Assembly (NCBI GenBank): GCA_017847835.1
Contig: JAGASH010000001.1
Coordinates: 7,270-71,269 of the forward strand
Direction: 5' to 3'
Source of the DNA: Oscillospiraceae bacterium
GTDB lineage: Bacteria > Bacillota > Clostridia > Oscillospirales > Ruminococcaceae
DNA: 64,000 nt
Part shown: piece after piece, positions 1-24,006 of the stretch
How the letters are laid out: the number at the start of each line of letters is the position of its first letter
Position numbering within the stretch: the first letter of the stretch is position 1
The notes under the pieces: model-generated
What the model saw: only the letters and a program-made list of their open reading frames with translations
Told to the model about the DNA's origin: nothing
Databases searched by the model: none
Translations under genes and position numbers: made by a program

Positions 1-1099
1 TTTTATCTTTTATTCTCAATGCCAGATCAGATATTGCATATGTTTTGCCCGAGAAGCTGCGTCCTGCTATTATCTGGAAAGGAAATTTGTTAATTCCTTT
101 CAGAACTGATTTCATGCAATTTCTTTGGATTAAGAAACACGGAATTATAAATTTATTTTTGGATTTATCAATTAATCCTTTTCCGTGAAAAAGAAAAGGT
201 TTATTATCATTAAAGTCAAACTGAAGTTTCGTTTGTTTCAGACTAGATATATCGTTAATTTGGTCGGCTACAAGTTTTTGTGCTTCTTGACCAGCTTCAT
301 ATAGTTTCTGATATATATCTTCATAGTCGTCAAATAACACGCAATGCGTAATTCCGTAATTTTCCAATTTGTTTTGCTGAACAAACGAGGGTTTCTCGCA
401 AGTTATAAAATATCTTGAATTAGAGTATTCTTCAGAGGACTTTAAGTAAATTGACAAATCAATCTCATCATCTAAACTACATCCGATAAATATCAAGTTG
501 TTTATTTCACTATCGTGGTAGAGCCTATTAAGCAATTGATGATTTGAAGATATACTTTCGATATACTGCCTTTTGGTAAATATTTCACTTATCGAATCTG
601 TATAAGAAACTATTTCTGATACATCTCCATGAAGCTTAATTACACACTGACATGTTTCGAATATGCTGTCATCAACAGGTCTGTTTGAATATACAACATT
701 ATAAGGCGCATTGTTTTCGACTGCATCATCTATGTTAAGTGAATAAATATAAGGCCATGGCAAGGACAAAAAAAGCATCTTCACCTTAGGCAATTGAACT
801 TGAGTAAAGTTATCAGTCAGATACTTTTTTTGAAAACTCAAAGGAACACTTTTGTGATATATATCTGACACTTCTGAAAATGATTCCTTAGCAATTGAAT
901 CTTTTTCGATTTCAGGTATTATTTTTAAAGCAAATAACTGTTCAATCATATACTCTTTGTAAGTCCTTCCGGATGGAACTTTTCCATTATGGGCCTTGCA
1001 TTGATGTGAAAAGCCAGAACCAATGCAAGGAATTAACGATTTCCTGCGAAAATTTTGAATGATCTCATTTTTAACGTCACTGAATTTAACAATTTTCAT
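1..1099 (-). CDS. SIR2-like domain + P-loop NTPase protein (Avs/STAND-like defence candidate); 3' end runs off the window
   Basis: Not in the ORF track. ATG at 1099 with GGAGG RBS; frame open to the window edge. SIR2_2-type motifs (LIPCIGSGFS, IYSLNIDD, VIKLHGD, IFIGCSLDDE) and a Walker A motif IIAGRSFSGKTY near position 40-80. Confidence 0.8.
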   Translation of the reverse strand, partial: MKIVKFSDVKNEIIQNFRRKSLIPCIGSGFSHQCKAHNGKVPSGRTYKEYMIEQLFALKIIPEIEKDSIAKESFSEVSDIYHKSVPLSFQKKYLTDNFTQVQLPKVKMLFLSLPWPYIYSLNIDDAVENNAPYNVVYSNRPVDDSIFETCQCVIKLHGDVSEIVSYTDSISEIFTKRQYIESISSNHQLLNRLYHDSEINNLIFIGCSLDDEIDLSIYLKSSEEYSNSRYFITCEKPSFVQQNKLENYGITHCVLFDDYEDIYQKLYEAGQEAQKLVADQINDISSLKQTKLQFDFNDNKPFLFHGKGLIDKSKNKFIIPCFLIQRNCMKSVLKGINKFPFQIIAGRSFSGKTYAISDLALRIKDK

Positions 1100-1772: not shown

Positions 1773-1910
1773 TCATTTGATACGCTCTTTTAAATTCGCG
1801 GGCTCTTTGGGCTGATAAGGTCCATAATAAGATGCCGCACCACAAGCAGCCTTCGCATTTTTAAGAGCTGTTTTTGCAATGACATTTGCAACTGCCTTTT
1901 TAACCTTCAT
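1773..1910 (-). CDS. agrD: AgrD-like cyclic lactone autoinducer precursor, 45 aa (MKVKKAVANVIAKTALKNAKAACGAASYYGPYQPKEPANLKERIK)
   Basis: Manual translation. Overlaps the agrB stop, has a GGAGG-type RBS, an amphipathic N-terminus and the YQPKEP motif typical of clostridial AgrD. Hairpin plus U-run downstream (about 1705-1740). Confidence 0.88.
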   Translation of the reverse strand: MKVKKAVANVIAKTALKNAKAACGAASYYGPYQPKEPANLKERIK

Positions 1911-2490
1911 GATATCCCCTCCTTTGCAAAAAAGTTTCTACTAATATCAATACTGATATCATAGCAACAGTAGTGATAATCATAGCCCCAAAAGAAATCC
2001 CCAAAGCAATCAGCGCTAATCCAATCACAGATAATGCCGATGCAATTATAATTGACAGAACAAATGAGTTTTTCCTCTGTTTATCGCTTAATTGTTTGTG
2101 TTTGTTTGGCACCGGAGAAAACAACATAATCGGTATTAAGCTCACAAATGCCAACGTTCCGCATATGTAAATCGAAAATTGACAGCCGGAAATGATGTTA
2201 TACGCAAAAAACGTTATGATGAAAGTTAATACAATTGTGAGGTTACACCTAAAATATGTAGTCGCGTGATAACCGCCCGAAAAAGAACGCAGGAAAATAA
2301 AAATAAACAAATATAATAAACCTGCTAATATATTGCCCAAAATCAACGAGCATAGCAGAACAAGGGTCACGTTAAGCATAGAAGAAATTGTTATTTCAAT
2401 GCCGTACTGATATACATCTTTCATTTCAGGAGAGATATCCAGGTGTTCTGAAGTAAATTTCAAAATTTTCTCCGATATCTGACATATCAT
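1900..2490 (-). CDS. agrB: Accessory gene regulator B (AgrB) membrane peptidase
   Basis: 196 aa multi-TM protein with YQYGIE, LRSFSGGYHATTYFRC and SPVPNKHKQL motifs; adjacent to agrD. Confidence 0.93.
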   Translation of the reverse strand: MICQISEKILKFTSEHLDISPEMKDVYQYGIEITISSMLNVTLVLLCSLILGNILAGLLYLFIFIFLRSFSGGYHATTYFRCNLTIVLTFIITFFAYNIISGCQFSIYICGTLAFVSLIPIMLFSPVPNKHKQLSDKQRKNSFVLSIIIASALSVIGLALIALGISFGAMIITTVAMISVLILVETFLQRRGYHEG

Positions 2491-2514
2491 ACAGCACTCC
2501 CCCTTTTGGGGTAG

Positions 2515-2579
2515 TATACACTAAATGTGAATGCTTGTCAACAGGTTTGTGAAGTTTGGTAGGATTTTGTGAAGTTTGG
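2515..2579 (-). promoter_or_regulatory. agrBD promoter with tandem CCAAACTTCACAAA direct repeats (LytTR-type site)
   Basis: Minus strand reads ccaaacttcacaaa-N6-ccaaacttcacaaa-cctg-TTGACA-17 bp-TATACT. Repeats at 2546-2559 and 2566-2579. Confidence 0.8.
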
Positions 2580-2603
2580 CATTATCTAAATAATTACATA
2601 TAA

Positions 2604-2642
2604 AAACAGTCCATACCGCTGCAAATTCGAGCGTATGGACTG
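2604..2642. terminator. Inverted repeat downstream of the XRE gene
   Basis: cagtccatac ... gtatggactg stem. Confidence 0.55.
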
Positions 2643-2691
2643 TGAAATATACTTGACAATGCCGTCATTTTGTGGTAGTATAAAACTAAAA

Positions 2692-3045
2692 TTACTTTGT
2701 ATTATTGTTATCGGCTTCGATGTAGTATAACATTTTTACAAGGTCTGCACAATGATTGTTATCCAGCCGAATTATTGATTCGAGCAATTTCCCGACAGAA
2801 GAGTTCTTCCCAATCTTCTTTTTCAGCGAGTGATTTGGCAAATTGAAGTCACTTCTTCCAACCAGATAATCCAGTGAAACATCAAAAATATCCGCAATAG
2901 CACAAAGTATGTCCAAGTCGGGCATACTGATATTTCTCTCATAATGAGAGATTGAATTTTTGGTGACGTGAAGTGCATCGGCAAGCCGCTGCTGCGTATA
3001 ACCGTGCTTTTCACGGAGCATTTTAAGAATTTCTGAAAAGTTCAT
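2692..3045 (-). CDS. XRE/Cro-C1 HTH transcriptional regulator
   Basis: LKMLREKHGYTQQRLADALHVTKNSISHYERNISMPD...IADIFDVSLDYLVGRS. Confidence 0.92.
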   Translation of the reverse strand: MNFSEILKMLREKHGYTQQRLADALHVTKNSISHYERNISMPDLDILCAIADIFDVSLDYLVGRSDFNLPNHSLKKKIGKNSSVGKLLESIIRLDNNHCADLVKMLYYIEADNNNTK

Positions 3046-3200
3046 TTTGTCAGACTCAAATCAACGATTATTTCTTATTTATATTGTACACCTTTTGATA
3101 CGGCGAATACACAAAAATATATTAGAAATGCGATTTCTCGACAAATTTTGACAAACAGTCGCAAGCTGAATATACATAGGTGAAAGGAGAATATACCAAG

Positions 3201-3929
3201 ATGATAAATGCTGCAATTTGCGATGATAATGAAGCTATGCTAAATTTCCTGTCCGGCAAAATCGGCGAAATTTTCACGGAAATCGGAATGGAATTTGAGC
3301 TTCAAAAGTTTCATTCGGGAGAGGATTTTCTAAAAAATCATGAAAACTGCCCATTCGACGTAGTTTTTATGGATATTGTAATGCCGGATATGAACGGTTT
3401 TGATGTGGCAAAACAGATGAGAAGAATTTCAAAGGACACTTACCTGATTTTTATCACAACCGAAAGCAGTCTGGTGTACGAGAGTTTTGATTTTCAGCCG
3501 TTCTATTTTATCCCAAAGGGCAAGCCGCTGGTAGTTGAGGAACGTCTGCGGCATGTTGTCGGCAAACTTGCTCTGCATACTGCCGCAAACGAGAAAATAC
3601 TGATTGACGGGGCTTATGAGAACAAATTCTATGTTTCACCAAGCGATATTTTATATATCAAAAGCAGTTCAAATCATGTTACGTTTCATTTTGTTGATGG
3701 TAAAACCGTGCAGATTAGGAAGAAGCTCGCTGAGTTATTTGACACTCTTAATCAATATATTTTCGTGCGAACTCACAACAGAATTGTAGTTAATATGAAA
3801 CGCATCGAGCGTGTGGACTATCCGAATATGGAAATTCTGCTTGATAACGGCGAGATTGTTCCTATCAGCAGAAGCTGCAAAAAGGACTTTGAGGTCGCTT
3901 ATATCAGGTTCACGAGGAATTTTAGTTAG
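3201..3929 (+). CDS. LytTR-family response regulator (AgrA-like)
   Basis: REC domain (AICDD, VFMDIVMP..NG) plus LytTR domain (FVRTHNRIVVNM, VPISR). Start moved to ATG 3201 after an AAAGGAG RBS. Confidence 0.92.
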   Translation: MINAAICDDNEAMLNFLSGKIGEIFTEIGMEFELQKFHSGEDFLKNHENCPFDVVFMDIVMPDMNGFDVAKQMRRISKDTYLIFITTESSLVYESFDFQPFYFIPKGKPLVVEERLRHVVGKLALHTAANEKILIDGAYENKFYVSPSDILYIKSSSNHVTFHFVDGKTVQIRKKLAELFDTLNQYIFVRTHNRIVVNMKRIERVDYPNMEILLDNGEIVPISRSCKKDFEVAYIRFTRNFS

Positions 3930-3940
3930 GAGCATAAATT

Positions 3941-5269
3941 ATGCAAAGTGTGTTATGGTTTCTTATTGAAGCGGCAGCAAATTTGTGCGAGTCTTTTTTG
4001 TGTGTTCATTTTATAATCAATTCGTTTGATGGAAAAGTCAAAGTCCTGTCTTCAAGAGTCGTTCAATTAATCGGCACTCTGGCAATGACAACTGTTGTTA
4101 CGGTTCTTAACAAAATGACAGTATATGAGGGCTTGCTTGGCTTGATTTATGTTTTGTGTTTTTTTGTTTTCGAAATTATATTTCTTCGAGGTACTGTTTG
4201 CAAGAAATTCTTCATCTCGATTCTAACCAATATTTGTCTGATTAGTACTGCGATGTTATCCGGAAATATTCTGTCTGTTATATTTAACAATCATTTGCAG
4301 CTTTTCTCCGAGCAAACATTGGAGAGATTTGCATATATGATTTTCGGAATAGCATTTGCCGCCTATATTTTTACGATTTTATCGAGGTTTACCTATGGAA
4401 ATAGATTTTCGCTTAATATAAAAGAATGGGCGTTGATTTTGTCGGTTTTGTTAATATCATCTTTGATAATTGCTGCAATTCACACAAATATACTCAATGG
4501 AAACATAAACAAGGAACAATTATATTTGCTTATGTTATCGGAACTCGGCTTGATTTTAATAAACATAATTTGCTTATACATAACCTCAAATCTGAGTGAA
4601 ACTCACAAGCGCGAGGAACATCTGCTTGTTGAGAAAAAACAGAATGAGTACACTCAAAAATATGCTCAGACAGTCAAGGAACAATACGAGCAAACCCGAA
4701 GGCTTCGACACGATATGAAGCAATACTGCACAGTTTTGGACGGATTGATTGTCGACAAAAAGTATGACGAAGCAAGGGCGTTCATCTCGGAGAATTACAA
4801 GAGCATTTCTCGTTCAGAGGTTGTGGTTGATGTGGGAAATGATTTTGTGAACTCGATTTTGAACGCAAAACTCACTCTGGCAAAATCTCTCGGAATTGAA
4901 GTTATATGCAGCGTGGAGAAAGAATTGTCGGGGATTGAGAGCGCGGATTTGTGCAATTTGCTGGGCAATATGCTTGACAATGCGATTGAAGCGGCGCAAA
5001 GATGCGAGCTTGAAAAACGCTCGATTGAGCTGAATATATCTTCTGTGGGAAACCGCTTGAACATCGCAATCAGAAACAGTATTATCCATTCCGTTCTAAA
5101 AGAAAACCCAAGCCTTGCAACCTCAAAGCCAGACAAATTTGAGCACGGTTTTGGTATAAAAACAATAAAAACCATTGCTGAAAAATATGGCGGAACAACA
5201 GATTTCTATGAGGATAATCTAACGTTTGTTTGCCGTGTGGAACTGCAAAAATCCGCAAAAGAAGAATAA
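3941..5269 (+). CDS. AgrC-like GHKL sensor histidine kinase
   Basis: Multiple N-terminal TMs, RRLRHDMKQ H-box, LLGNMLDNAIEA N-box, HGFGIKTI G-box. Confidence 0.92.
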   Translation: MQSVLWFLIEAAANLCESFLCVHFIINSFDGKVKVLSSRVVQLIGTLAMTTVVTVLNKMTVYEGLLGLIYVLCFFVFEIIFLRGTVCKKFFISILTNICLISTAMLSGNILSVIFNNHLQLFSEQTLERFAYMIFGIAFAAYIFTILSRFTYGNRFSLNIKEWALILSVLLISSLIIAAIHTNILNGNINKEQLYLLMLSELGLILINIICLYITSNLSETHKREEHLLVEKKQNEYTQKYAQTVKEQYEQTRRLRHDMKQYCTVLDGLIVDKKYDEARAFISENYKSISRSEVVVDVGNDFVNSILNAKLTLAKSLGIEVICSVEKELSGIESADLCNLLGNMLDNAIEAAQRCELEKRSIELNISSVGNRLNIAIRNSIIHSVLKENPSLATSKPDKFEHGFGIKTIKTIAEKYGGTTDFYEDNLTFVCRVELQKSAKEE

Positions 5270-5273
5270 CAAA

Positions 5274-5310
5274 ATTCCCGCTCGATTGAAAAATTGGCGG
5301 GATTTTTGCG
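5274..5310 (+). terminator. Intrinsic terminator after the kinase
   Basis: aattcccgc ... gcgggatttttg stem followed by Ts. Confidence 0.6.
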
Positions 5311-5340
5311 CTCTATTTACAAAAAAAAGATGAAATTTCT

Positions 5341-5408
5341 GCCAAACTTCACAAGATACGGCCAAACTTCACAAAGCGGTTGACAATGAAAAACGAATGT
5401 GATATGCT
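5341..5408 (+). promoter_or_regulatory. Promoter with tandem GCCAAACTTCACAA repeats (same box as the agrBD promoter)
   Basis: Repeats at 5341-5354 and 5361-5374, then gcgg, TTGACA (5380-5385), 17 bp, and TG-n-TATGCT (5403-5408). Confidence 0.8.
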
Positions 5409-5502
5409 GTAATTGCAAGGTTGACTTTGTAGTACTTACAGGCTATGGATACAATTATGTTTGTACACCATGATTGTATCTCATCATATTAGGAGGTTTA
5501 CT

Positions 5503-5907
5503 ATGAAAGGTATTTTTAAAAAGCTCGCGGCATCTGCTTTGGCTGCAGTAACACTTATTACAGGTACATTAACGGCGTCGGCTGATGTGGTTGTTCTTCG
5601 TGCCGGAAACTATCAGGACACATCGAACAACGCAACCATGAAGTGGGGAGTATGTTATTGTGAGATGATTAACAATTCAACCGTTGTCAGAAAAGCACAG
5701 ACATATGTAAAAGTATATAAAGACTTAACAGGAGTGCTGGTTGACCAAACATCGAGCGAAGGCTCAATCGGTTATGGTGAAAGTGTTCGAGCAGAGCTTA
5801 ACGGATATTATTCAAACGGATATAATTTTGAGTTAACTGGGATAATCTACAACGGCAATAGTACTTATTCCGGCGTTTCGTGGAGCAAAACAGCATATCT
5901 TGAATAA
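5503..5907 (+). CDS. Small Sec-secreted protein (134 aa), possible bacteriocin/effector
   Basis: AGGAGG RBS before ATG 5503. Signal peptide MKGIFKKLAASALAAVTLITGTLTASA|D; mature part is beta-rich with many Tyr/Gly/Ser. Confidence 0.75.
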   Translation: MKGIFKKLAASALAAVTLITGTLTASADVVVLRAGNYQDTSNNATMKWGVCYCEMINNSTVVRKAQTYVKVYKDLTGVLVDQTSSEGSIGYGESVRAELNGYYSNGYNFELTGIIYNGNSTYSGVSWSKTAYLE

Positions 5908-5925
5908 TTCAATATTAATAAAATG

Positions 5926-5965
5926 GCAGATTGTGGAGCGGGATAATCCCGTTCCACAAAAATCT
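5926..5965 (+). other. Strong stem-loop between the secreted-protein gene and the ABC genes
   Basis: cagattgtggagcggga-taa-tcccgttccacaaaaatctg. Confidence 0.6.
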
Positions 5966-5976
5966 GGAGGATTAAT

Positions 5977-7137
5977 ATGAAGTACATTCTACGCAACATA
6001 CGCTCTCTTATCAAAAACGAGCCGCTTATTTTCGCGGTAATGATTGTATGCGTTTTCGCTTCATCATGGGTACTGACGTTCGCTTACGGGCTGTATCAGA
6101 ACTACAACGTGCAGAAAACCGAGGCGGATATCGAGAGCAAGGAATTGGTTTTGAGTCTGCGTGAGGACAAGTCGGTCACGAGGACGGATTTGGAGCGGTT
6201 TTTCGCGGAAATAAGCGATGAAACCCTCAACGCGGCAAACCTCCTGTACTGCGACGCAGAACTTCCCGGCTTTCCGACAGAGCGTGGAGATTACGGCAGG
6301 GCTGCATTCCGTTTTACTATTCATAACGGACAGTATCAATCCTCCTCATACATAAAGGAACAGTGGGAGAAAAAAGGACAGATAACCTCCGGACGCTTTT
6401 TCAGCGATGATGATGAAAAAAACGGTGCAAACGTTGCGTTGATTAATACCGATATGGGAGAGTGGAACGAAGCTACACTTGCAATTAAAACGGGAGAAAA
6501 CACCATAAGATTGTTCGACAAGGAATACGAGATTATCGGCACATACGACGGCTTTGGCGGGGTTCCGCTGATACCGTTTTTATCAATTCCCGAGGATTTA
6601 GAGCTTTCCGCGCCGGCATTTATGTTTGAAAAAAATCTGACCAAGTCGCAGTATGAAGAAATCAGAAGCGCCGCGAGAAGAGCTGTTCCGGAAACGTTTG
6701 TTTTCCCGGATTTGGCGTTCCCCGATACTGAAAACATTTATATTTACAACAACATTATGCTTATCTGCGCGCTTATTGCCATGCTCACCGTGATAAACTT
6801 CGCTTCACTTTACAATTACATCATCAGCAAAAGAATACGTCAGCTTGCTGTGTTTAAGCTGTGCGGCTGTACCTCTTTCAAGGCAACGGGCTTTTATCTT
6901 GCGGAATGTGCGATTATCTGCGTTCCCGTGTTTATGATAGGGACGGCGAGCTATATACCCGTGATGAAATTCTTCCTCTCGCCGATTTTCCCGTATATGA
7001 AGGACGCTTATTCGCCTGTTATTTATACGGTAATTTTCGCTTTGTATATAATAATTCTTGTGATTATTATGAGCTTTACGCTAATCCGTTCCGTCAAGAA
7101 AAACACCGCGGCAATCTGGAAGGAGGGAGCATTATGA
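5977..7137 (+). CDS. FtsX/MacB-like ABC transporter permease
   Basis: N-terminal TM, extracellular GRFFS..D motif, C-terminal RIRQLAVFKLCGC plus three TMs. Confidence 0.85.
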   Translation: MKYILRNIRSLIKNEPLIFAVMIVCVFASSWVLTFAYGLYQNYNVQKTEADIESKELVLSLREDKSVTRTDLERFFAEISDETLNAANLLYCDAELPGFPTERGDYGRAAFRFTIHNGQYQSSSYIKEQWEKKGQITSGRFFSDDDEKNGANVALINTDMGEWNEATLAIKTGENTIRLFDKEYEIIGTYDGFGGVPLIPFLSIPEDLELSAPAFMFEKNLTKSQYEEIRSAARRAVPETFVFPDLAFPDTENIYIYNNIMLICALIAMLTVINFASLYNYIISKRIRQLAVFKLCGCTSFKATGFYLAECAIICVPVFMIGTASYIPVMKFFLSPIFPYMKDAYSPVIYTVIFALYIIILVIIMSFTLIRSVKKNTAAIWKEGAL

Positions 7138-8366
7138 TACTGTTTAAAACCGCGCTTCGCGAGTTGAAGAATAACATCAGAATGGTTGTGATAATGCTGC
7201 TTCAGATAGTTGTCGCTTTAATGATTACGGCGGTTATGGTGTCGGCTGTGCTGCTGAAATATCAGACCTACGAGCCGTTTAAGGATTATTTCGAGAGCGA
7301 GGGACTGTTCCTGAACTATGGAACGGAAGCTCGCGAAAACCCTGACCCTGATGATGTAATGAGCGTATTTCACGACAGTCAAAAACTGCTTGAAAAGACG
7401 CACGGAAGCGAAATTATAGCCGCTCATCATCTTTATATGTATATGGATAAAAGGGTTTTGGATTTAGCCTATGACGATGAGATAATCCACCGTTATACAC
7501 CGCCTTTGAAAGAAGGGCGCTGGCTTAATCCAAATGCTGAGGAACTCGAAATTGTGGTTTGCGAAAATAACGAATACGGCTGGAAGCTTGGAGATATGGC
7601 GGACATTCGACCCGGCTGGCATTTTTCCAATGACAATACGAAAAGCGTTTGGTGCAAGGCAAAGGTTGTCGGAATTGTTAAGGAGAACGCGGAAATTTTC
7701 GGAGATACAAACCGAAAGTGGACTACTCCGACCTACAAGAACGCATACCGACCATTCAATGCCGAAGTTGAAGAGAGAACACTTATTATTATGTCGCAAT
7801 CGGTTGTTAAGAGGGTTGACCCGCATTATACCACGCCGATATGCGGCACAGTAATGATAAAATATCCCGAAGGCACACCTGCGGAGGTTATCAAGGAAGA
7901 CCGAAATCTGCTTTCGGAATATGGAGATGTTATTTCAATGACGCTCCCCGAAATGGATATTAACAGTAAGGTGTATCTTTACGAGCAGCTTTATCAGATG
8001 CTTCCGATAATTGTAATTCTGCTTATTCTTGTAATGGTAAGCTCAATCAGCACCTCGGCAATTTCCGCACGGCGGCGGCTCAAGGATTACGCGAAATATT
8101 ATGTGCTGGGACTGAGGTGGCGGCAATGCGCGTTTGTGAACTTTTTCCAGGCGCTCGTTATAAGCGCGGCTGCTCTGGTTATTTCCTGCGCGGGACTGCT
8201 TGTAATCGGTAACACGGCATTGTCCGAAACATTTGTTGTAATCTGGAACGCGCCGATGATTTTATGCCTGCTCGGAATACTTTTTATGTATCTTGTATTT
8301 TCGATGATAATGCCGATGATTATGCTGCGCTCCAACACGCCTAAAGCGCTTCTGCAAGCCGAATAA
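7134..8366 (+). CDS. FtsX/MacB-like ABC transporter permease
   Basis: ATG 7134 overlaps the upstream stop, after a GGAGGGAG RBS. LKEGRWL motif; RRRLKDYAKYYVLG plus three TMs. Confidence 0.85.
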   Translation: MILFKTALRELKNNIRMVVIMLLQIVVALMITAVMVSAVLLKYQTYEPFKDYFESEGLFLNYGTEARENPDPDDVMSVFHDSQKLLEKTHGSEIIAAHHLYMYMDKRVLDLAYDDEIIHRYTPPLKEGRWLNPNAEELEIVVCENNEYGWKLGDMADIRPGWHFSNDNTKSVWCKAKVVGIVKENAEIFGDTNRKWTTPTYKNAYRPFNAEVEERTLIIMSQSVVKRVDPHYTTPICGTVMIKYPEGTPAEVIKEDRNLLSEYGDVISMTLPEMDINSKVYLYEQLYQMLPIIVILLILVMVSSISTSAISARRRLKDYAKYYVLGLRWRQCAFVNFFQALVISAAALVISCAGLLVIGNTALSETFVVIWNAPMILCLLGILFMYLVFSMIMPMIMLRSNTPKALLQAE

Positions 8367-8376
8367 GGAGGACAAA

Positions 8377-9045
8377 ATGATAGAAGTATCGAACTTAACG
8401 AAAATCTACAATCCCAAAAAAGCCAACGAATTTACCGCACTGAAAAACATCTCTCTGAAGATAAACGACGGCGAAATGTCCGCGATAATCGGCAAATCGG
8501 GCGCGGGAAAATCCACGCTTTTGCACATTCTCGCGTGCATTGACGACTATCAGGGCGGCGAATATAAAATCGATGAAACGCTTGTAAAACAGCTCTCCGA
8601 GCGGCAATCGGCGCGTATCCGCAATGAAAAAATCGGTATGGTTATGCAGGATTTTGCGCTGGTGGAGGACTTCACGGCGATTGAAAACGTGCTGCTTCCG
8701 CTGGAGTTTTCAAAGCACAAAAAATCCAACCGACAGGAAAAAGCGTTGAACGCGCTGAAATCGGTTGGAATGGAGCAGTACGCGAAAAAGCCCGTAAACA
8801 AGCTCTCCGGCGGTCAAAAACAGCGTGTTGCAATCGCTCGCGCAATCGTAAACGAGCCGTCGCTTATCCTCGCGGACGAGCCGACCGGCGCTCTTGATAC
8901 CAAAACCTCCGCTGAAATTATGGACGTTTTCAGGAAGCTGCACTCCGAGGGAAAGACGATTGTTATCGTCACTCACGACCCGGGAGTTGCGGAGCAATGC
9001 GAGAGAATTATCGAGATTTCGGACGGAAAAATAATTTCGCAATAA
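8377..9045 (+). CDS. ABC transporter ATP-binding protein (LolD/MacB type)
   Basis: GKSGAGKST, LSGGQKQRVAIARA, ILADEPTGALD, VTHD. Confidence 0.96.
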   Translation: MIEVSNLTKIYNPKKANEFTALKNISLKINDGEMSAIIGKSGAGKSTLLHILACIDDYQGGEYKIDETLVKQLSERQSARIRNEKIGMVMQDFALVEDFTAIENVLLPLEFSKHKKSNRQEKALNALKSVGMEQYAKKPVNKLSGGQKQRVAIARAIVNEPSLILADEPTGALDTKTSAEIMDVFRKLHSEGKTIVIVTHDPGVAEQCERIIEISDGKIISQ

Positions 9046-9047
9046 AT

Positions 9048-9078
9048 CTTGCGGCAGTTTTCGGGCTGCCGCATTTTC
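9048..9078 (+). terminator. Terminator after the ABC operon
   Basis: tgcggcag ... ctgccgca followed by tttt. Confidence 0.6.
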
Positions 9079-9731: not shown

Positions 9732-10832
9732 TTAAGCAACCGAGAACAGCGCCGAAACCGACTTCATATACTCGGCTTTTTGTTCCATTGAGGAGTGAAC
9801 GTAGCGATTGAGCGTTATCTCCACACCGCTGTGTCCCAAGATTTCCGACAGAGATTTCACATCAACACCGAGTGCTATACAATTTGTGGCGAACAGATGG
9901 CGTAGCGAATGAAAAGATACATCAGACAATTTCAGTACTTTCAGAATGCGCTTGAACCGGTACTGCATAACTCGCGGCTCGACAATGCACCCTGTTCCCG
10001 AAAGAAGATAGCAGGAATTGTTAGCTTTAAACTCGGATAAAATCGGAATGATAAACTCCGGCAGAGGAATTTCCCGAACAGATGAGCTGCTCTTGGGCGA
10101 TGTCACAACCAACTTTGTAGCAGTATCTCCGTTGATGTTCTTAATTCGCTGAACGGTATTCCTGACGGTCAAAATTCTTTTTTCAAGATTGATATTCTCC
10201 CATTTCAGCGCACAAAGCTCCCCGATACGAATTCCCGTTGCTGCCGATAATAAAATACCGACATTTGAAAGTGTCGGATTTGCTATCAAATAATTGTTAA
10301 GCCGAGTCTGCTCCGTCTTGTCGAGCAGCTCTTTTTCTTTTGCCCTACCTTTGGGTATTTCCATAAATACCGATTTGTCCTCGTAACCGAAGCGTTTCTT
10401 ACCAAAGCGGCACACCGATTTGATTACTGCCACAATATCTGCGGTATATTTTGCGGAAAGCCCGCTTGACAGCTTTGCCTGAACAAAATCATTAAGTTTT
10501 TCAACCGTCAATCTTTCATAAAGCGTTTTTCCGAGCGATGAGCTGATGTGCTTTTCATATTTCATCTGATAGTTCATATAGGTGGACTCCTTGACTTTCA
10601 ACCGAATATCCGAAAACCACATTGAAAAAAGAATATTTAACGTCAAATTCTTCGGAACAGTAGAAACCGCTGTATTAACACGCTTTTCCGACAGCGCTGC
10701 TTTAACCTCTGCATATGTTTTCCCATAAATTGAGGAATATTTTGCCGTTCCGTCAGCCCTGACGCCGCTTTTATAGCGACCTTCCCAGCGACCGTCTTTT
10801 CTCTTGTAAATATTCTCTCCACGTCTTGCCAT
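9732..10832 (-). CDS. Tyrosine recombinase/integrase
   Basis: N-terminal RKDGRWEGRY arm-binding motif. Catalytic R (TGIRIGEL), K (PKSSSS), HSLRH, LGHS and RYVH all present. Confidence 0.95.
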   Translation of the reverse strand: MARRGENIYKRKDGRWEGRYKSGVRADGTAKYSSIYGKTYAEVKAALSEKRVNTAVSTVPKNLTLNILFSMWFSDIRLKVKESTYMNYQMKYEKHISSSLGKTLYERLTVEKLNDFVQAKLSSGLSAKYTADIVAVIKSVCRFGKKRFGYEDKSVFMEIPKGRAKEKELLDKTEQTRLNNYLIANPTLSNVGILLSAATGIRIGELCALKWENINLEKRILTVRNTVQRIKNINGDTATKLVVTSPKSSSSVREIPLPEFIIPILSEFKANNSCYLLSGTGCIVEPRVMQYRFKRILKVLKLSDVSFHSLRHLFATNCIALGVDVKSLSEILGHSGVEITLNRYVHSSMEQKAEYMKSVSALFSVA

Positions 10833-11146: not shown

Positions 11147-11700
11147 GCAGACGAGTTCAAACTAGTCTGATATAGCACATTGAAAATCGAATAGCAGTAT
11201 TTCAGATACTTTCCCTCGCGCAGCCTGACAAGGAGAAAGCGGCAGGCTCGATACGATGTCGAGGGGGTTACGCCAAAAGCGCTGCGGACGCAGTGCAGTT
11301 AAGCGTGACCTCAGCCTCGCGCCAAGACGTTTACTGTATCAAAAATCGGACAAGCCCTGCGTTTAGCAGAACGAGAAAACTCGTCAAAAATCCGTAAAAT
11401 GATACAAAACCGAGCGATAAAGAGCGGCTCCCGAAACCGATGTGGCAGTCGGTGCGCGATGACCTGCGCGAGGGGACAATGATACTTCCGTCCAGCCACA
11501 GTTCGACGCAATGGGGGCGGCTTCATGAGAACCATGTTGAGGTGAAAGACCTATGACGCTGCAAGGCTAAGCAGCGGTCTGAAATACTCCCATATAGTCG
11601 GGGCGCGGGGCAAATACGACAATTTTTACAGGCAAACAGCGGAGAAATCCGCTTTAACATAAGATTTCGGCTCTGTGTTTTTGCAGAGCCGAGATTTTAC
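11147..11700 (+). ncRNA. Candidate large structured non-coding RNA / leader upstream of mazF
   Basis: Perfect long-range helices 11196-11206/11578-11588 and 11213-11223/11464-11474. Loop 11441-11446 is complementary to 11495-11500 (pseudoknot). Many local hairpins and no credible ORF. Confidence 0.72.
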
Positions 11701-11703
11701 ATA

Positions 11704-12084
11704 ATGGGAGAAATGAAAATGAACAAAAAAAGAATAAAGCGCGGGGAAATCTACCTCGCAAATCTTGAACCAAAAATCGGCAGCGAACAGGGCGGCTTTC
11801 GTCCGGTGGTGATTCTGCAAAACAATGTTGGCAACAAGCACAGCCCGACTACAATCGCCGCGCCAATCACAACAAAACGTATTCCGAACAGGCTTCCCGT
11901 GCACGTTTTCACGTTCGCGGGGAGTTCGGGTTTGCCGCAAAATTCGAGCATAATGCTTGAGCAAATCCGAGTTCTCGACAAATCGCGCTTGACCGACTAT
12001 ATCGGCAAAATCAACGATTTCACAATGGACGAGGTTGACCGAGCACTGAAAATAAGCGTGGGTTTAAACTCAAAATACAACTGA
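11704..12084 (+). CDS. mazF: PemK/MazF-family endoribonuclease toxin (probable start 11719)
   Basis: KRGEIYLANLEPKIGSEQGGFRPVVILQNNVGNKHSPTTIAAPIT...LEQIRVLDKSRL. Confidence 0.93.
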   Translation: MGEMKMNKKRIKRGEIYLANLEPKIGSEQGGFRPVVILQNNVGNKHSPTTIAAPITTKRIPNRLPVHVFTFAGSSGLPQNSSIMLEQIRVLDKSRLTDYIGKINDFTMDEVDRALKISVGLNSKYN

Positions 12085-12348: not shown

Positions 12349-13884
12349 ATGGCTGAAATCACGATAATTCCTGCGAAAAATCAGCCGTCGGAAATTGTCC
12401 GAACTGCCGCTTACGCGCGAGTTTCAAGCGACAGCGAAGACCAGCTGAACTCGTTTGCAGCGCAAATTCGCTACTACACCGAGCTGCTCAAAAACAGCAC
12501 CGACGCGGTGCTCGTGGATATGTATGCGGACGAGGGAATCACCGGAACTTCGGCGGCAAAACGTCCGGATTTTCAGCGACTGATGAGCGACTGCCGAAAG
12601 GGAAAAATCGACCGAATTCTCACAAAATCCGTGTCAAGATTTGCGCGAAACACAACCGAATGTCTGGCGGCAGTACGCGAGCTGAAAGCGCTTGGAATAA
12701 GCGTTTACTTCGAAAAAGAGGACATCGAAACCGCCGAAATCAGCACGGAAATGCTGCTGACTTTGTACAGTCAATTCGCGCAGGAAGAGTCGATTTCAAT
12801 ATCAAAAAATGTGCGAATGGGCATCCAAAAACAAATGTCTGACGGAACCTACAAAAATCCCTCGGTGCCTTACGGTTTTATTTATGACAACGGAAAAATA
12901 ATTCCTGTCAAAGAAAAAGCAGAAACGGTTCGCCGAATTTTCAAGTGGTACGTTGATGGAATTGGAGCGGAAGAAATTTCGGTGAGATTAAACCGGATTA
13001 ACATTCCGGCACCGTACGGAAAATGCTGGCGAACAAATCAAATTCTGAGAATTCTAACCAATGAAAAATACGTCGGCGACACGCTTCTGCAAAAGAGATT
13101 CACAACAGATGCCCTTCCGTTCCGATTGGTCGAAAACCGTGGCGAGAAGCCAAAATTCTACATTCGGGAAACGCACGAGCCGATAGTTCAGCGCGAAATT
13201 TTTGACAAGGTTCAGTCGTTGCTAAAGTCAAGGAAACCAAACGTTGATTTCACATCACAAAAGAGTGTGTTCAGCGGAAAAATCAAATGCGGACGTTGCG
13301 GCTGCACATTTAGACGAAAGAAAAACCGCGAAAAAATCTATTGGGTCTGCCGAAATCACGACCATAAAAGTCTCACGGAGTGTGAAATTCGGCAAATTCG
13401 CGAAAGTGTATTTCAAGCGGCATTTGTGAGATTGTGGAACAAGCTCCAAGCGCATTACAAAGCCGTTCTTATACCAATGATAAAGCAGTTTGAAATGCTT
13501 TACGAAAAAGAAAAATCAGGTGATTTTCAGCTCGCAAATCTGCGGAGAGAAATCGCGGAAATAAAGCAGCAAATCCACTTGCTGACCGTGCTGAACTCGC
13601 AGGGAACGCTGGATGATGCGTACTTCAAATCGCGCTCGCAGGAGCTTGACAGGAAGCTGATGACAGCGCAAAAACAACTCCGCGCAAGCCTTGATGATGA
13701 GGAAAACGAACGGCTTGACGAGCTGCGAAAACTGATTGCAATTCTCGAAAAATCCGCGCAGATAACCAAATTTGACGAGATAAAATTCGGGCAAATCGTG
13801 AGCAAAATCACGGTGCTTTCGGAGTCGGAAATACGGTTCGATATAATCGGCGGAATTGGCTTTACAGAGCAGATTGAGAGGTGA
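12349..13884 (+). CDS. Large serine recombinase (resolvase + recombinase + Zn-ribbon + coiled coil)
   Basis: AAYARVSSD catalytic Ser, TKSVSRFARN, NEKYVGD, KCGRCG...WVCRNH. Confidence 0.95.
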   Translation: MAEITIIPAKNQPSEIVRTAAYARVSSDSEDQLNSFAAQIRYYTELLKNSTDAVLVDMYADEGITGTSAAKRPDFQRLMSDCRKGKIDRILTKSVSRFARNTTECLAAVRELKALGISVYFEKEDIETAEISTEMLLTLYSQFAQEESISISKNVRMGIQKQMSDGTYKNPSVPYGFIYDNGKIIPVKEKAETVRRIFKWYVDGIGAEEISVRLNRINIPAPYGKCWRTNQILRILTNEKYVGDTLLQKRFTTDALPFRLVENRGEKPKFYIRETHEPIVQREIFDKVQSLLKSRKPNVDFTSQKSVFSGKIKCGRCGCTFRRKKNREKIYWVCRNHDHKSLTECEIRQIRESVFQAAFVRLWNKLQAHYKAVLIPMIKQFEMLYEKEKSGDFQLANLRREIAEIKQQIHLLTVLNSQGTLDDAYFKSRSQELDRKLMTAQKQLRASLDDEENERLDELRKLIAILEKSAQITKFDEIKFGQIVSKITVLSESEIRFDIIGGIGFTEQIER

Positions 13885-23271: not shown

Positions 23272-24006
23272 TTGGTGAAGTTTGCGGTGTGTGATGACGA
23301 ACGGGAAATTGCTGATTTGGTTTCGGAAAAGCTGCGGGAGTTTTACCCCGATGAATGTGAGATAAAGTCATATGTTGACGGGAAAACTCTGCTTGCAGAC
23401 AGCGTTCGTGAACTCTTTGACGCGTTTTTCCTCGATATCGAAATGCCCGGTCTTGACGGGTTTACGCTTGTCGAAAAAATCCGCGCAGACAATCCTTTCG
23501 CGAAGATTATTTTTGTAACGAAAAATACCGAACTCGCCCACATCGGATACCTGTACGGCGCGTTCAGATATGTGAGAAAATTCGCGTTGGAGGAAGAATT
23601 GCGCGAGGCAGCTTTGAGCCTAAAACGCGAATTTGACTTGCAAAGCGAGTTCCTTCTTCTCAAAACACCGTTCGGAGAGGTCATAAGAGCGGTAAACAGT
23701 ATCCGATATTTCGAGGTGAAAGGACACCAAGTCACCGCCTTCTTCGGCGATACCGAGGAGCGCGTGAGCGGCACTATGAACGAGTATGAGGCACGTTTGA
23801 AGAATGTCGGTTTTATTCGGATACATAAAAGTTTTCTCGTGAATTTTCGGTTTATCGAGTATGTCGGGAAAACCACCGTGACTTTGATAGACGGCAGTAC
23901 GCTTGCGTTAAGCAGAAACAGAGTTGCCGAAACCAAGAGAAAACTGCTGATTTTTTCGAGGAATAAAGTGCAGCTTTGTTCAAATAACCCTGTAAAAAAT
24001 TTTTAA
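23272..24006 (+). CDS. Orphan LytTR-family response regulator
   Basis: FAVCDDE, FFLDIEMPGLDG, FIRIHKSFLVN, LSRNR; no adjacent kinase. Confidence 0.9.
   Translation: MVKFAVCDDEREIADLVSEKLREFYPDECEIKSYVDGKTLLADSVRELFDAFFLDIEMPGLDGFTLVEKIRADNPFAKIIFVTKNTELAHIGYLYGAFRYVRKFALEEELREAALSLKREFDLQSEFLLLKTPFGEVIRAVNSIRYFEVKGHQVTAFFGDTEERVSGTMNEYEARLKNVGFIRIHKSFLVNFRFIEYVGKTTVTLIDGSTLALSRNRVAETKRKLLIFSRNKVQLCSNNPVKNF

Follow-up and report, generated by a model that had tools for sequence, protein, structure and literature searches.

LytTR regulators bind two repeats of 9-11 nt that lie 11-13 nt apart (PMC4847170). The VirR boxes of Clostridium perfringens are found just upstream of the -35 element in a fixed register (PMC2838878), and RgaR of Clostridioides difficile activates agrB1D1 and spoZ through repeats with a critical G at -51 and -72 (PMC10602386). 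Here we analyzed a 64-kb window (G000:C1:7270-71269, the whole stretch of DNA under study) from the 2.18-Mb genome (2,177,254 bases, 48% G+C) of an Oscillospiraceae bacterium, in which the quorum sensing genes agrBD and an operon for a secreted protein (Sec1) and an ATP-binding cassette (ABC) transporter are both preceded by the same pair of repeat boxes. Based on the sequence, we propose with a probability of about three in four that an uncultured Oscillospirales bacterium of the animal gut carries here an agr-type peptide quorum sensing module, whose whole predicted regulon consists of three boxed promoters.

The 13-mer CCAAACTTCACAA was found in four exact copies in the window by direct reading and pattern search. 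At the agrBD promoter, on the minus strand, the distal box is at 2567-2579 and the proximal box is at 2547-2559, while at the Sec1/ABC promoter, on the plus strand, pattern search placed them at 5342-5354 and 5362-5374, respectively. Both pairs have a 20-bp period and are followed by 5 nt, TTGACA, 17 nt and either TATACT (agrBD) or TATGCT (Sec1), and the whole boxed promoters span 2579-2513 on the minus strand and 5342-5408 on the plus strand. An earlier note on this DNA had described identical repeat-box architecture at the two promoters, which reading and pattern search bore out; the minus-strand end that it gave, 2515, stops 2 nt before the end of the -10 hexamer (2513), a trivial difference. 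Leaving aside the boxes, the -35 and the -10, single segments of the two promoters show 29-60% identity, with 60% reached in the short 5-nt spacer. No copy of the 13-mer with one mismatch was found within the window, where the next best copies have 2-3 mismatches. A single box at 23273-23285 with 2 mismatches, near another LytTR gene, was rejected as a site, having neither a tandem partner nor a promoter.

The genome-wide box scan that the earlier note had suggested gave five exact copies, compared with a chance expectation of ~0.07 for a 13-mer on both strands, and all five fall in three promoters inside ~7 kb. The reversed 13-mer, used as a control pattern, had zero copies in the 2.18-Mb genome. 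When the whole genome was scanned for tandem pairs with periods of 18-23, only three real pairs were found, and the others were no better than 6/26 mismatches. The fifth exact box (G000:C1 5614-5626, minus strand) lies ~1.65 kb before the window and is the proximal box of the third promoter (G000:C1, = L009, 5646-5580, minus strand). This promoter has a distal box CCAAAAATAACAA with 3 mismatches, a 20-bp period, the exact proximal box, 5 nt, TTGACA, 17 nt and TATACT, and it drives Sec2, a 163-aa signal-peptide protein, and four more genes, the last of which encodes an ABC ATPase (L009:1488-5485, minus strand). The same promoter type, including the same degenerate distal box, was seen again in two related loci, L038 and L218.

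The arrangement of the boxes resembles the VirR boxes and RgaR sites, which also consist of two 12-13-nt direct repeats 7-8 nt apart just upstream of the -35, with the same fixed position at every target and a small regulon (PMC2838878, PMC2688746, PMC10602386). RgaR directly activates agrB1D1, akin to the control of agrBD predicted here (PMC10602386). The layout of two repeats upstream of a promoter, as described for LytTR sites, was found at this locus (PMC4847170). The earlier note considered the 20-bp period slightly shorter than usual, and this is correct; it is 1 bp under the 21 bp of RgaR. With a core of 9 nt and 11 nt up to the next one, the period is still within the published LytTR range, at its short end (PMC4847170). 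The regulator and kinase genes adjoin agrBD and the targets here, whereas VirSR and RgaSR are unlinked to agrBD; as a further difference, no small RNA target was found at this locus. The box sequence C[CA]AAACTTCACAA also differs from the VirR consensus, and the locus shows neither the VirR-type box sequence nor the 21-bp register.

All four agr-type components were found, namely AgrB, AgrD, a LytTR response regulator and a polytopic GHKL kinase. The agrD gene (1773..1910, minus strand) encodes a 45-aa autoinducer precursor (TIGR04223, 24.8 bits with a cut-off of 19), and agrB (1900..2490, minus strand), encoding the sole intact AgrB in the genome, specifies the membrane peptidase predicted to process AgrD (PF04647, 111.7 bits with a cut-off of 23), with a GGYH75...C82 motif and several hydrophobic segments. 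The predicted box binder is a response regulator with receiver and LytTR domains (3201..3929, plus strand; PF00072 and PF04397), in which FVRTHNR fits the LytTR FxRxH motif. It matched the LytTR structure of Staphylococcus aureus AgrA (3bs1) weakly, with an E value of 5e-4, and its score against the NCBIfam AgrA equivalog was 42.6, far under the cut-off of 400, and therefore we describe it as AgrA-like and not as an AgrA orthologue. The AgrC-like histidine kinase (3941..5269, plus strand; PF14501 GHKL, HATPase_c_5, 81 bits) has ~6-7 hydrophobic segments in residues 1-220 and the H-box RRLRHD at His257. An XRE-family helix-turn-helix regulator gene (2692..3045, minus strand; PF01381, 64.9 bits) is located between agrB and the regulator gene. 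AgrD is conserved in 6 orthologous loci. Among the AgrD orthologues, AKxACGAAS and YQPKEP are invariant, and the four residues between them vary (YYGP, FFCS, FYAS, GYGP, YFGP, CYCF and CHGW), which fits a specificity-determining ring beginning at the conserved Ser. No Rfam match to a known RNA was found in the agr region.

The agrBD and Sec1 promoters are the two best sigma-70-like promoters of the region. The agrBD core promoter (2513..2541, minus strand) consists of TTGACA (2541-2536), 17 nt and TATACT (2518-2513), matches 11/12 consensus positions, the best of the region, and has its predicted transcription start ~15 nt before the agrB ATG. The Sec1 core promoter (5380..5408, plus strand) consists of TTGACA, 17 nt and (TG)..TATGCT (5403-5408), with 10/12 consensus positions and the TG. 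Just upstream of the two boxed promoters are the terminator hairpin of the XRE gene (2606..2643, minus strand; free energy -20.2 kcal/mol, z -5.0, then UUUUU) and an intrinsic terminator 3' of the kinase gene (5270..5308, plus strand; -19.6 kcal/mol, z -5.15, then UUUUU), and these Rho-independent terminators are predicted to shield the agrBD and output promoters from read-through. A promoter-like TTGACA-17-(TG)TAGTAT was also observed at 2653-2681 (plus strand), just after the XRE terminator, and reads into the XRE gene from its 3' end in the antisense direction.

The regulator is patchy in its GTDB family, being found in 12 of 200 sampled genomes at E<=1e-30 with 46% identity at best. Eight loci with regulators 57-79% identical were found in public genomes, all of them gut metagenome-assembled genomes labelled Ruminococcaceae, Oscillospiraceae or Clostridia, and they share the gene order agrD-agrB, XRE, regulator-kinase and then a variable output cassette. 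The architecture box-N7-box-N5-TTGACA-N17 plus a -10 element was present in 20 promoters from 12 genomes or contigs with invariant spacing, beside LytTR regulators 36-79% identical. Across this clade the consensus is two copies of C[CA]AAACTTCACAA with a 20-bp period and 5 nt to the -35; the 9-nt core ACTTCACAA plus 11 nt makes the 20-bp period in 20/20 promoters as well as in both variant loci described below. Where sequence was available, a box pair was located upstream of agrB in 9/9 further loci and downstream of the kinase gene in 9/11 loci, and the gene behind every boxed promoter is either agrB or one whose product carries a signal peptide or lipobox. Conservation in homologous loci, proposed in the earlier note as a check, was thus observed at agrB and at the output operons, while the flanks diverge. 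Pairwise identity among the 20 promoters was 75% for the distal box, 87% for the proximal box, 98% for the -35, 59% for the -10 and 29-51% for spacers and flanks, figures that are partly inflated by ascertainment bias because the instances were chosen by box similarity, yet the sites are at the positions predicted by synteny.

Metagenome contigs were also scanned. The exact scan for the full tandem pattern gave nothing, while the blind scan with the proximal box and the -35 gave 118 usable matches, 6 with a recognisable distal box and the rest mostly chance. Five of these 6 were directly upstream of agrB, beside regulator/kinase homologues 36-57% identical. In the genomes of five relatives, the proximal box with the -35 was restricted to agr loci, with one to three sites each. 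In locus L037 the Sec1-type gene is inside a longer operon, and the operon promoter was not found. We did not count sites of the form AAATTTCAAAAA-N5-TTGACA, seen in this genome and in related ones, among the regulon members: they are A/T-rich upstream regions of strong tRNA-type promoters and have no distal box.

The architecture is therefore unique in the genome, conserved among relatives and found together with the regulator, and from this we infer regulator binding, activation and autoinduction as follows. AgrB would process the AgrD precursor into a secreted autoinducer, and the polytopic kinase (3941-5269) would sense it and phosphorylate the LytTR regulator (3201-3929). Each of the two 13-bp direct repeats, at ~-73 to -61 and ~-53 to -41, would then be occupied by the LytTR domain of one regulator molecule, and the two molecules would aid RNA polymerase at the adjacent TTGACA-17-TATAnT. 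The promoters activated in this way would be those of agrBD, giving positive feedback on signal production, of the Sec1/MacB-type ABC operon, and of the Sec2/ABC cassette ~1.6 kb before the window. No box was found by pattern search in the XRE/regulator intergenic region, and therefore the receptor genes are outside the predicted feedback loop in this genome; the regulator/kinase operon is probably constitutive or under the neighboring XRE protein. Strong comparative evidence supports this circuit. The view in the earlier note that the regulator/kinase pair autoactivates agrBD and switches on the secreted protein and the transporter is thereby supported, on comparative grounds. Its description of a complete output module held for the four agr components and the boxed outputs, but the third boxed promoter is outside the window and the regulator/kinase operon has no box.

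Besides the ascertainment bias, several points weigh against this circuit. The perfect -35 and 17-nt spacer mean that basal activity may be substantial and the effect of the regulator modest or different. The AgrA dependence of the S. aureus promoters comes from suboptimal spacers of 18-20 nt, and cutting them to 17 nt made transcription independent of AgrA (PMC4227749). In two loci with homologous regulator/kinase pairs, L035 and L039, the kinase gene is not followed by a boxed output promoter. The likeness of the Sec1 and Sec2 promoters is partly paralogy, given their shared leader sequence. The DNA came from animal-gut metagenomes, and the RNA libraries gave only assembled contigs of related strains, with no start sites. 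Sec1 and the transporter genes are covered by these contigs, agrBD and the regulator/kinase genes by none. This would fit Sec1 as the most abundant transcript but proves nothing; the contigs prove neither transcription nor a start site.

The spacer data make it conceivable, although in our judgment unlikely, that the boxes are true regulator sites in front of intrinsically strong promoters, and that the LytTR regulator modulates or represses them, for example when unphosphorylated, instead of being an essential activator. Nearly all of the 20 promoters have a perfect TTGACA, a 17-nt spacer and a good -10, and a 17-nt spacer is what makes S. aureus agr promoters activator-independent (PMC4227749). 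However, the boxes are wholly upstream of the -35 (~-41 to -73), where the activators VirR and RgaR also have their sites and where steric repression would be poorly placed, and the terminators shielding the promoters fit tight on/off control.

Another candidate binder was considered as well. XRE proteins typically bind inverted repeats, whereas the box pair is a direct repeat. In eight loci the XRE gene separates agrB from the regulator gene; it is syntenic in L032, L033, L034, L035, L038, L218 and L166. The genome encodes five LytTR proteins, the regulator and four others, so that the boxes might be bound by the XRE protein (2692-3045) or by one of those four. We consider this very unlikely. 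The boxes are present without an adjacent XRE gene in L036, L037, L228, L233 and L258, and therefore the adjacent LytTR regulator (3201-3929) is the likely binder. Moreover, the boxes are always beside homologues of this regulator, and their sequence shifts as it diverges. One variant locus, with a regulator 46% identical, has the box CTKTTTTTCACAA, and a second, with a regulator 37% identical, has CAAAACTTCCCTA; in both, the period is still 20 and the gap still 5 nt. Such a change of the box with the regulator is expected if that regulator reads it. That the repeats are non-functional leftovers of promoter duplication on a mobile element is hardly credible: the Sec1 and Sec2 promoters do have leader sequence in common, and genes for conjugation and recombinases flank the region, but the agrBD promoter matches the other two in the boxes, -35 and -10 only, and the architecture is kept at regulator identities of 36-79% with spacers near random.

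Activation by the LytTR regulator is thus retained as the preferred reading. TTGACA was also considered as a third half-site for the regulator, as it resembles TTCACA, and was rejected, because it is 12 nt and not 20 nt from the proximal core and stays constant where the 3' half of the box changes. Four related loci (L034:8210-8240, L035, L038 and L218) have an inverted repeat, TTGTGAA-N7-TTCACAA, just upstream of the Shine-Dalgarno sequence of the regulator gene, at columns ~120-142 of alignment A2. It contains the 3' core of the box and might serve in autoregulation or form a hairpin in the leader; it is absent in the window (3140-3180) and in L032. One relative, G201, has an orphan regulator/kinase pair (L039:10001-12062, 57% identical) with no agrBD or boxes nearby, in addition to a second, complete boxed agr locus on another contig (L233). 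The orphan pair may be an eavesdropping receptor.

The agr P2/P3 system of S. aureus is similar to this locus in having AgrB, AgrD, an AgrC-type kinase and a LytTR regulator, and tandem direct repeats before the signal-synthesis promoter with autoinduction. It is organized as a single agrBDCA operon in which the receptor genes are also autoinduced, whereas here agrBD and regulator/kinase are separate units with the XRE gene between them. The S. aureus effector is the divergent RNAIII, while the outputs here are adjacent protein/transporter cassettes. The S. aureus repeats are at 21-22 bp and the promoter spacers are 18/20 nt (PMC4227749), compared with 20 bp and 17 nt here.

The peptide-pheromone LytTR circuits of the ComE/BlpR/PlnC type control bacteriocin loci and use linear double-glycine peptides with dedicated exporters. 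As predicted here, a quorum sensing two-component system turns on neighboring operons for a secreted product and an ABC transporter via direct repeats. Unlike in those circuits, the signal here is of the AgrBD type, and the products are ~100-aa Sec-dependent beta-sandwich proteins without a bacteriocin family match.

Sec1 (5503..5907, plus strand) is a 134-aa Sec-signal protein with an Ig-like beta-sandwich. Neither Sec1 nor Sec2 matched a bacteriocin family or any Pfam or NCBIfam family, and Pfam did not bear out DUF2712, the Atlas lead for Sec2. The Sec1 family comprises small secreted proteins of ~125-135 aa with 35 cluster representatives, and in one match the domain is repeated in a 2,780-aa protein. 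The AlphaFold (AF2) model of Sec1 has a predicted local distance difference test (pLDDT) score of 83.7 and shows eight strands in a beta-sandwich, and a PDB fold search with it gave only generic beta-sandwich domains at template modelling (TM) scores of 0.3-0.4. Sec1 as a Sec-dependent bacteriocin of the lactococcin 972 type had no support, as there was no Pfam match even at E 10 and the fold matches were only generic. The Sec1/permease intergenic region has a strong hairpin (5927..5966, plus strand; -25.6 kcal/mol, z -6.4) without a U-tract. It is followed by the ABC transporter (5977..9045, plus strand; PF02687, PF12704 and PF00005), with FtsX/MacB-type permeases at 5977-7137 and 7134-8366 and the ATPase at 8377-9045, and a terminator 3' of these genes was predicted from the sequence at 9050-9073 (plus strand). 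The MacB-type transporter may act in export or self-protection.

In two unrelated contigs a Sec1 homologue directly follows agrD, and in a third contig one stands beside a PermA homologue, and therefore the link between agr and the cassette is stronger. The two are short gut-metagenome contigs (L259:530-1077 and L260:8-809) with the Sec1 homologue immediately 3' of the agrD homologue; the gap of ~40 nt in L259 suggests co-transcription with agrBD. The Sec1 and Sec2 leaders, which both start with GCAAGGTT, are alike, and therefore their two promoters are paralogous, whereas the agrBD promoter has only the boxes, -35 and -10 in common with them. Just before the ribosome-binding site, both leaders (window 5445-5484, plus strand; L009 ~5505-5541, minus strand) contain a hairpin of 13-15 bp whose loop is 9 nt long. 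Compensatory differences were observed between these paralogous leaders; the fold z-scores were not significant and Rfam gave no match for the hairpins.

A SIR2_2-domain gene is located between the two output cassettes (window 2-1099, minus strand, continuing to L009:5924-7384). A type IV secretion system coupling protein gene (TraG/VirD4-like; L009:35-1438, plus strand) is upstream, and a tyrosine integrase gene (9732-10832, minus strand) and a serine recombinase gene (12349-13884, plus strand) are downstream. The agr locus is probably on an integrative or conjugative element. The Rfam pemK RNA (RF02913) was found at 11476-11556 (plus strand; 56.3 bits with a gathering score of 34.8), directly upstream of a PemK/MazF gene at 11704-12084, and therefore part of a structured RNA noted earlier there is a known cis-regulatory motif.

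The principle of a LytTR regulator on tandem repeats upstream of the -35 with agrBD autoinduction is already textbook, and the locus is an ordinary example of it. Its system-specific traits are the invariant 20-bp register, the consensus core promoters, the XRE gene embedded in the locus and a predicted regulon that stays strictly local and is made up of secreted-protein/ABC cassettes on probable mobile DNA. Quite tentatively, the agr module and its boxed cassettes might be a portable, self-contained quorum sensing unit on mobile gut-Oscillospirales DNA, with at least two cassette types shuffled between agr loci; each cassette would combine a box pair of its own and a conserved hairpin in the leader with a dedicated ABC transporter and a small Ig-like protein, Sec-secreted and from an uncharacterized family, and the secreted proteins might be a new class of density-controlled competition or surface effectors, with the transporter serving self-protection or export. 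The boxes provide a clean, testable cis-regulatory code for one clade of agr systems, those of uncultured Clostridia from the gut, which predicts control of just one to three adjacent operons for uncharacterized secreted proteins and ABC transporters. The quorum sensing output of these commensals thereby becomes directly addressable by experiment, using reporter fusions, footprinting and synthetic autoinducer.

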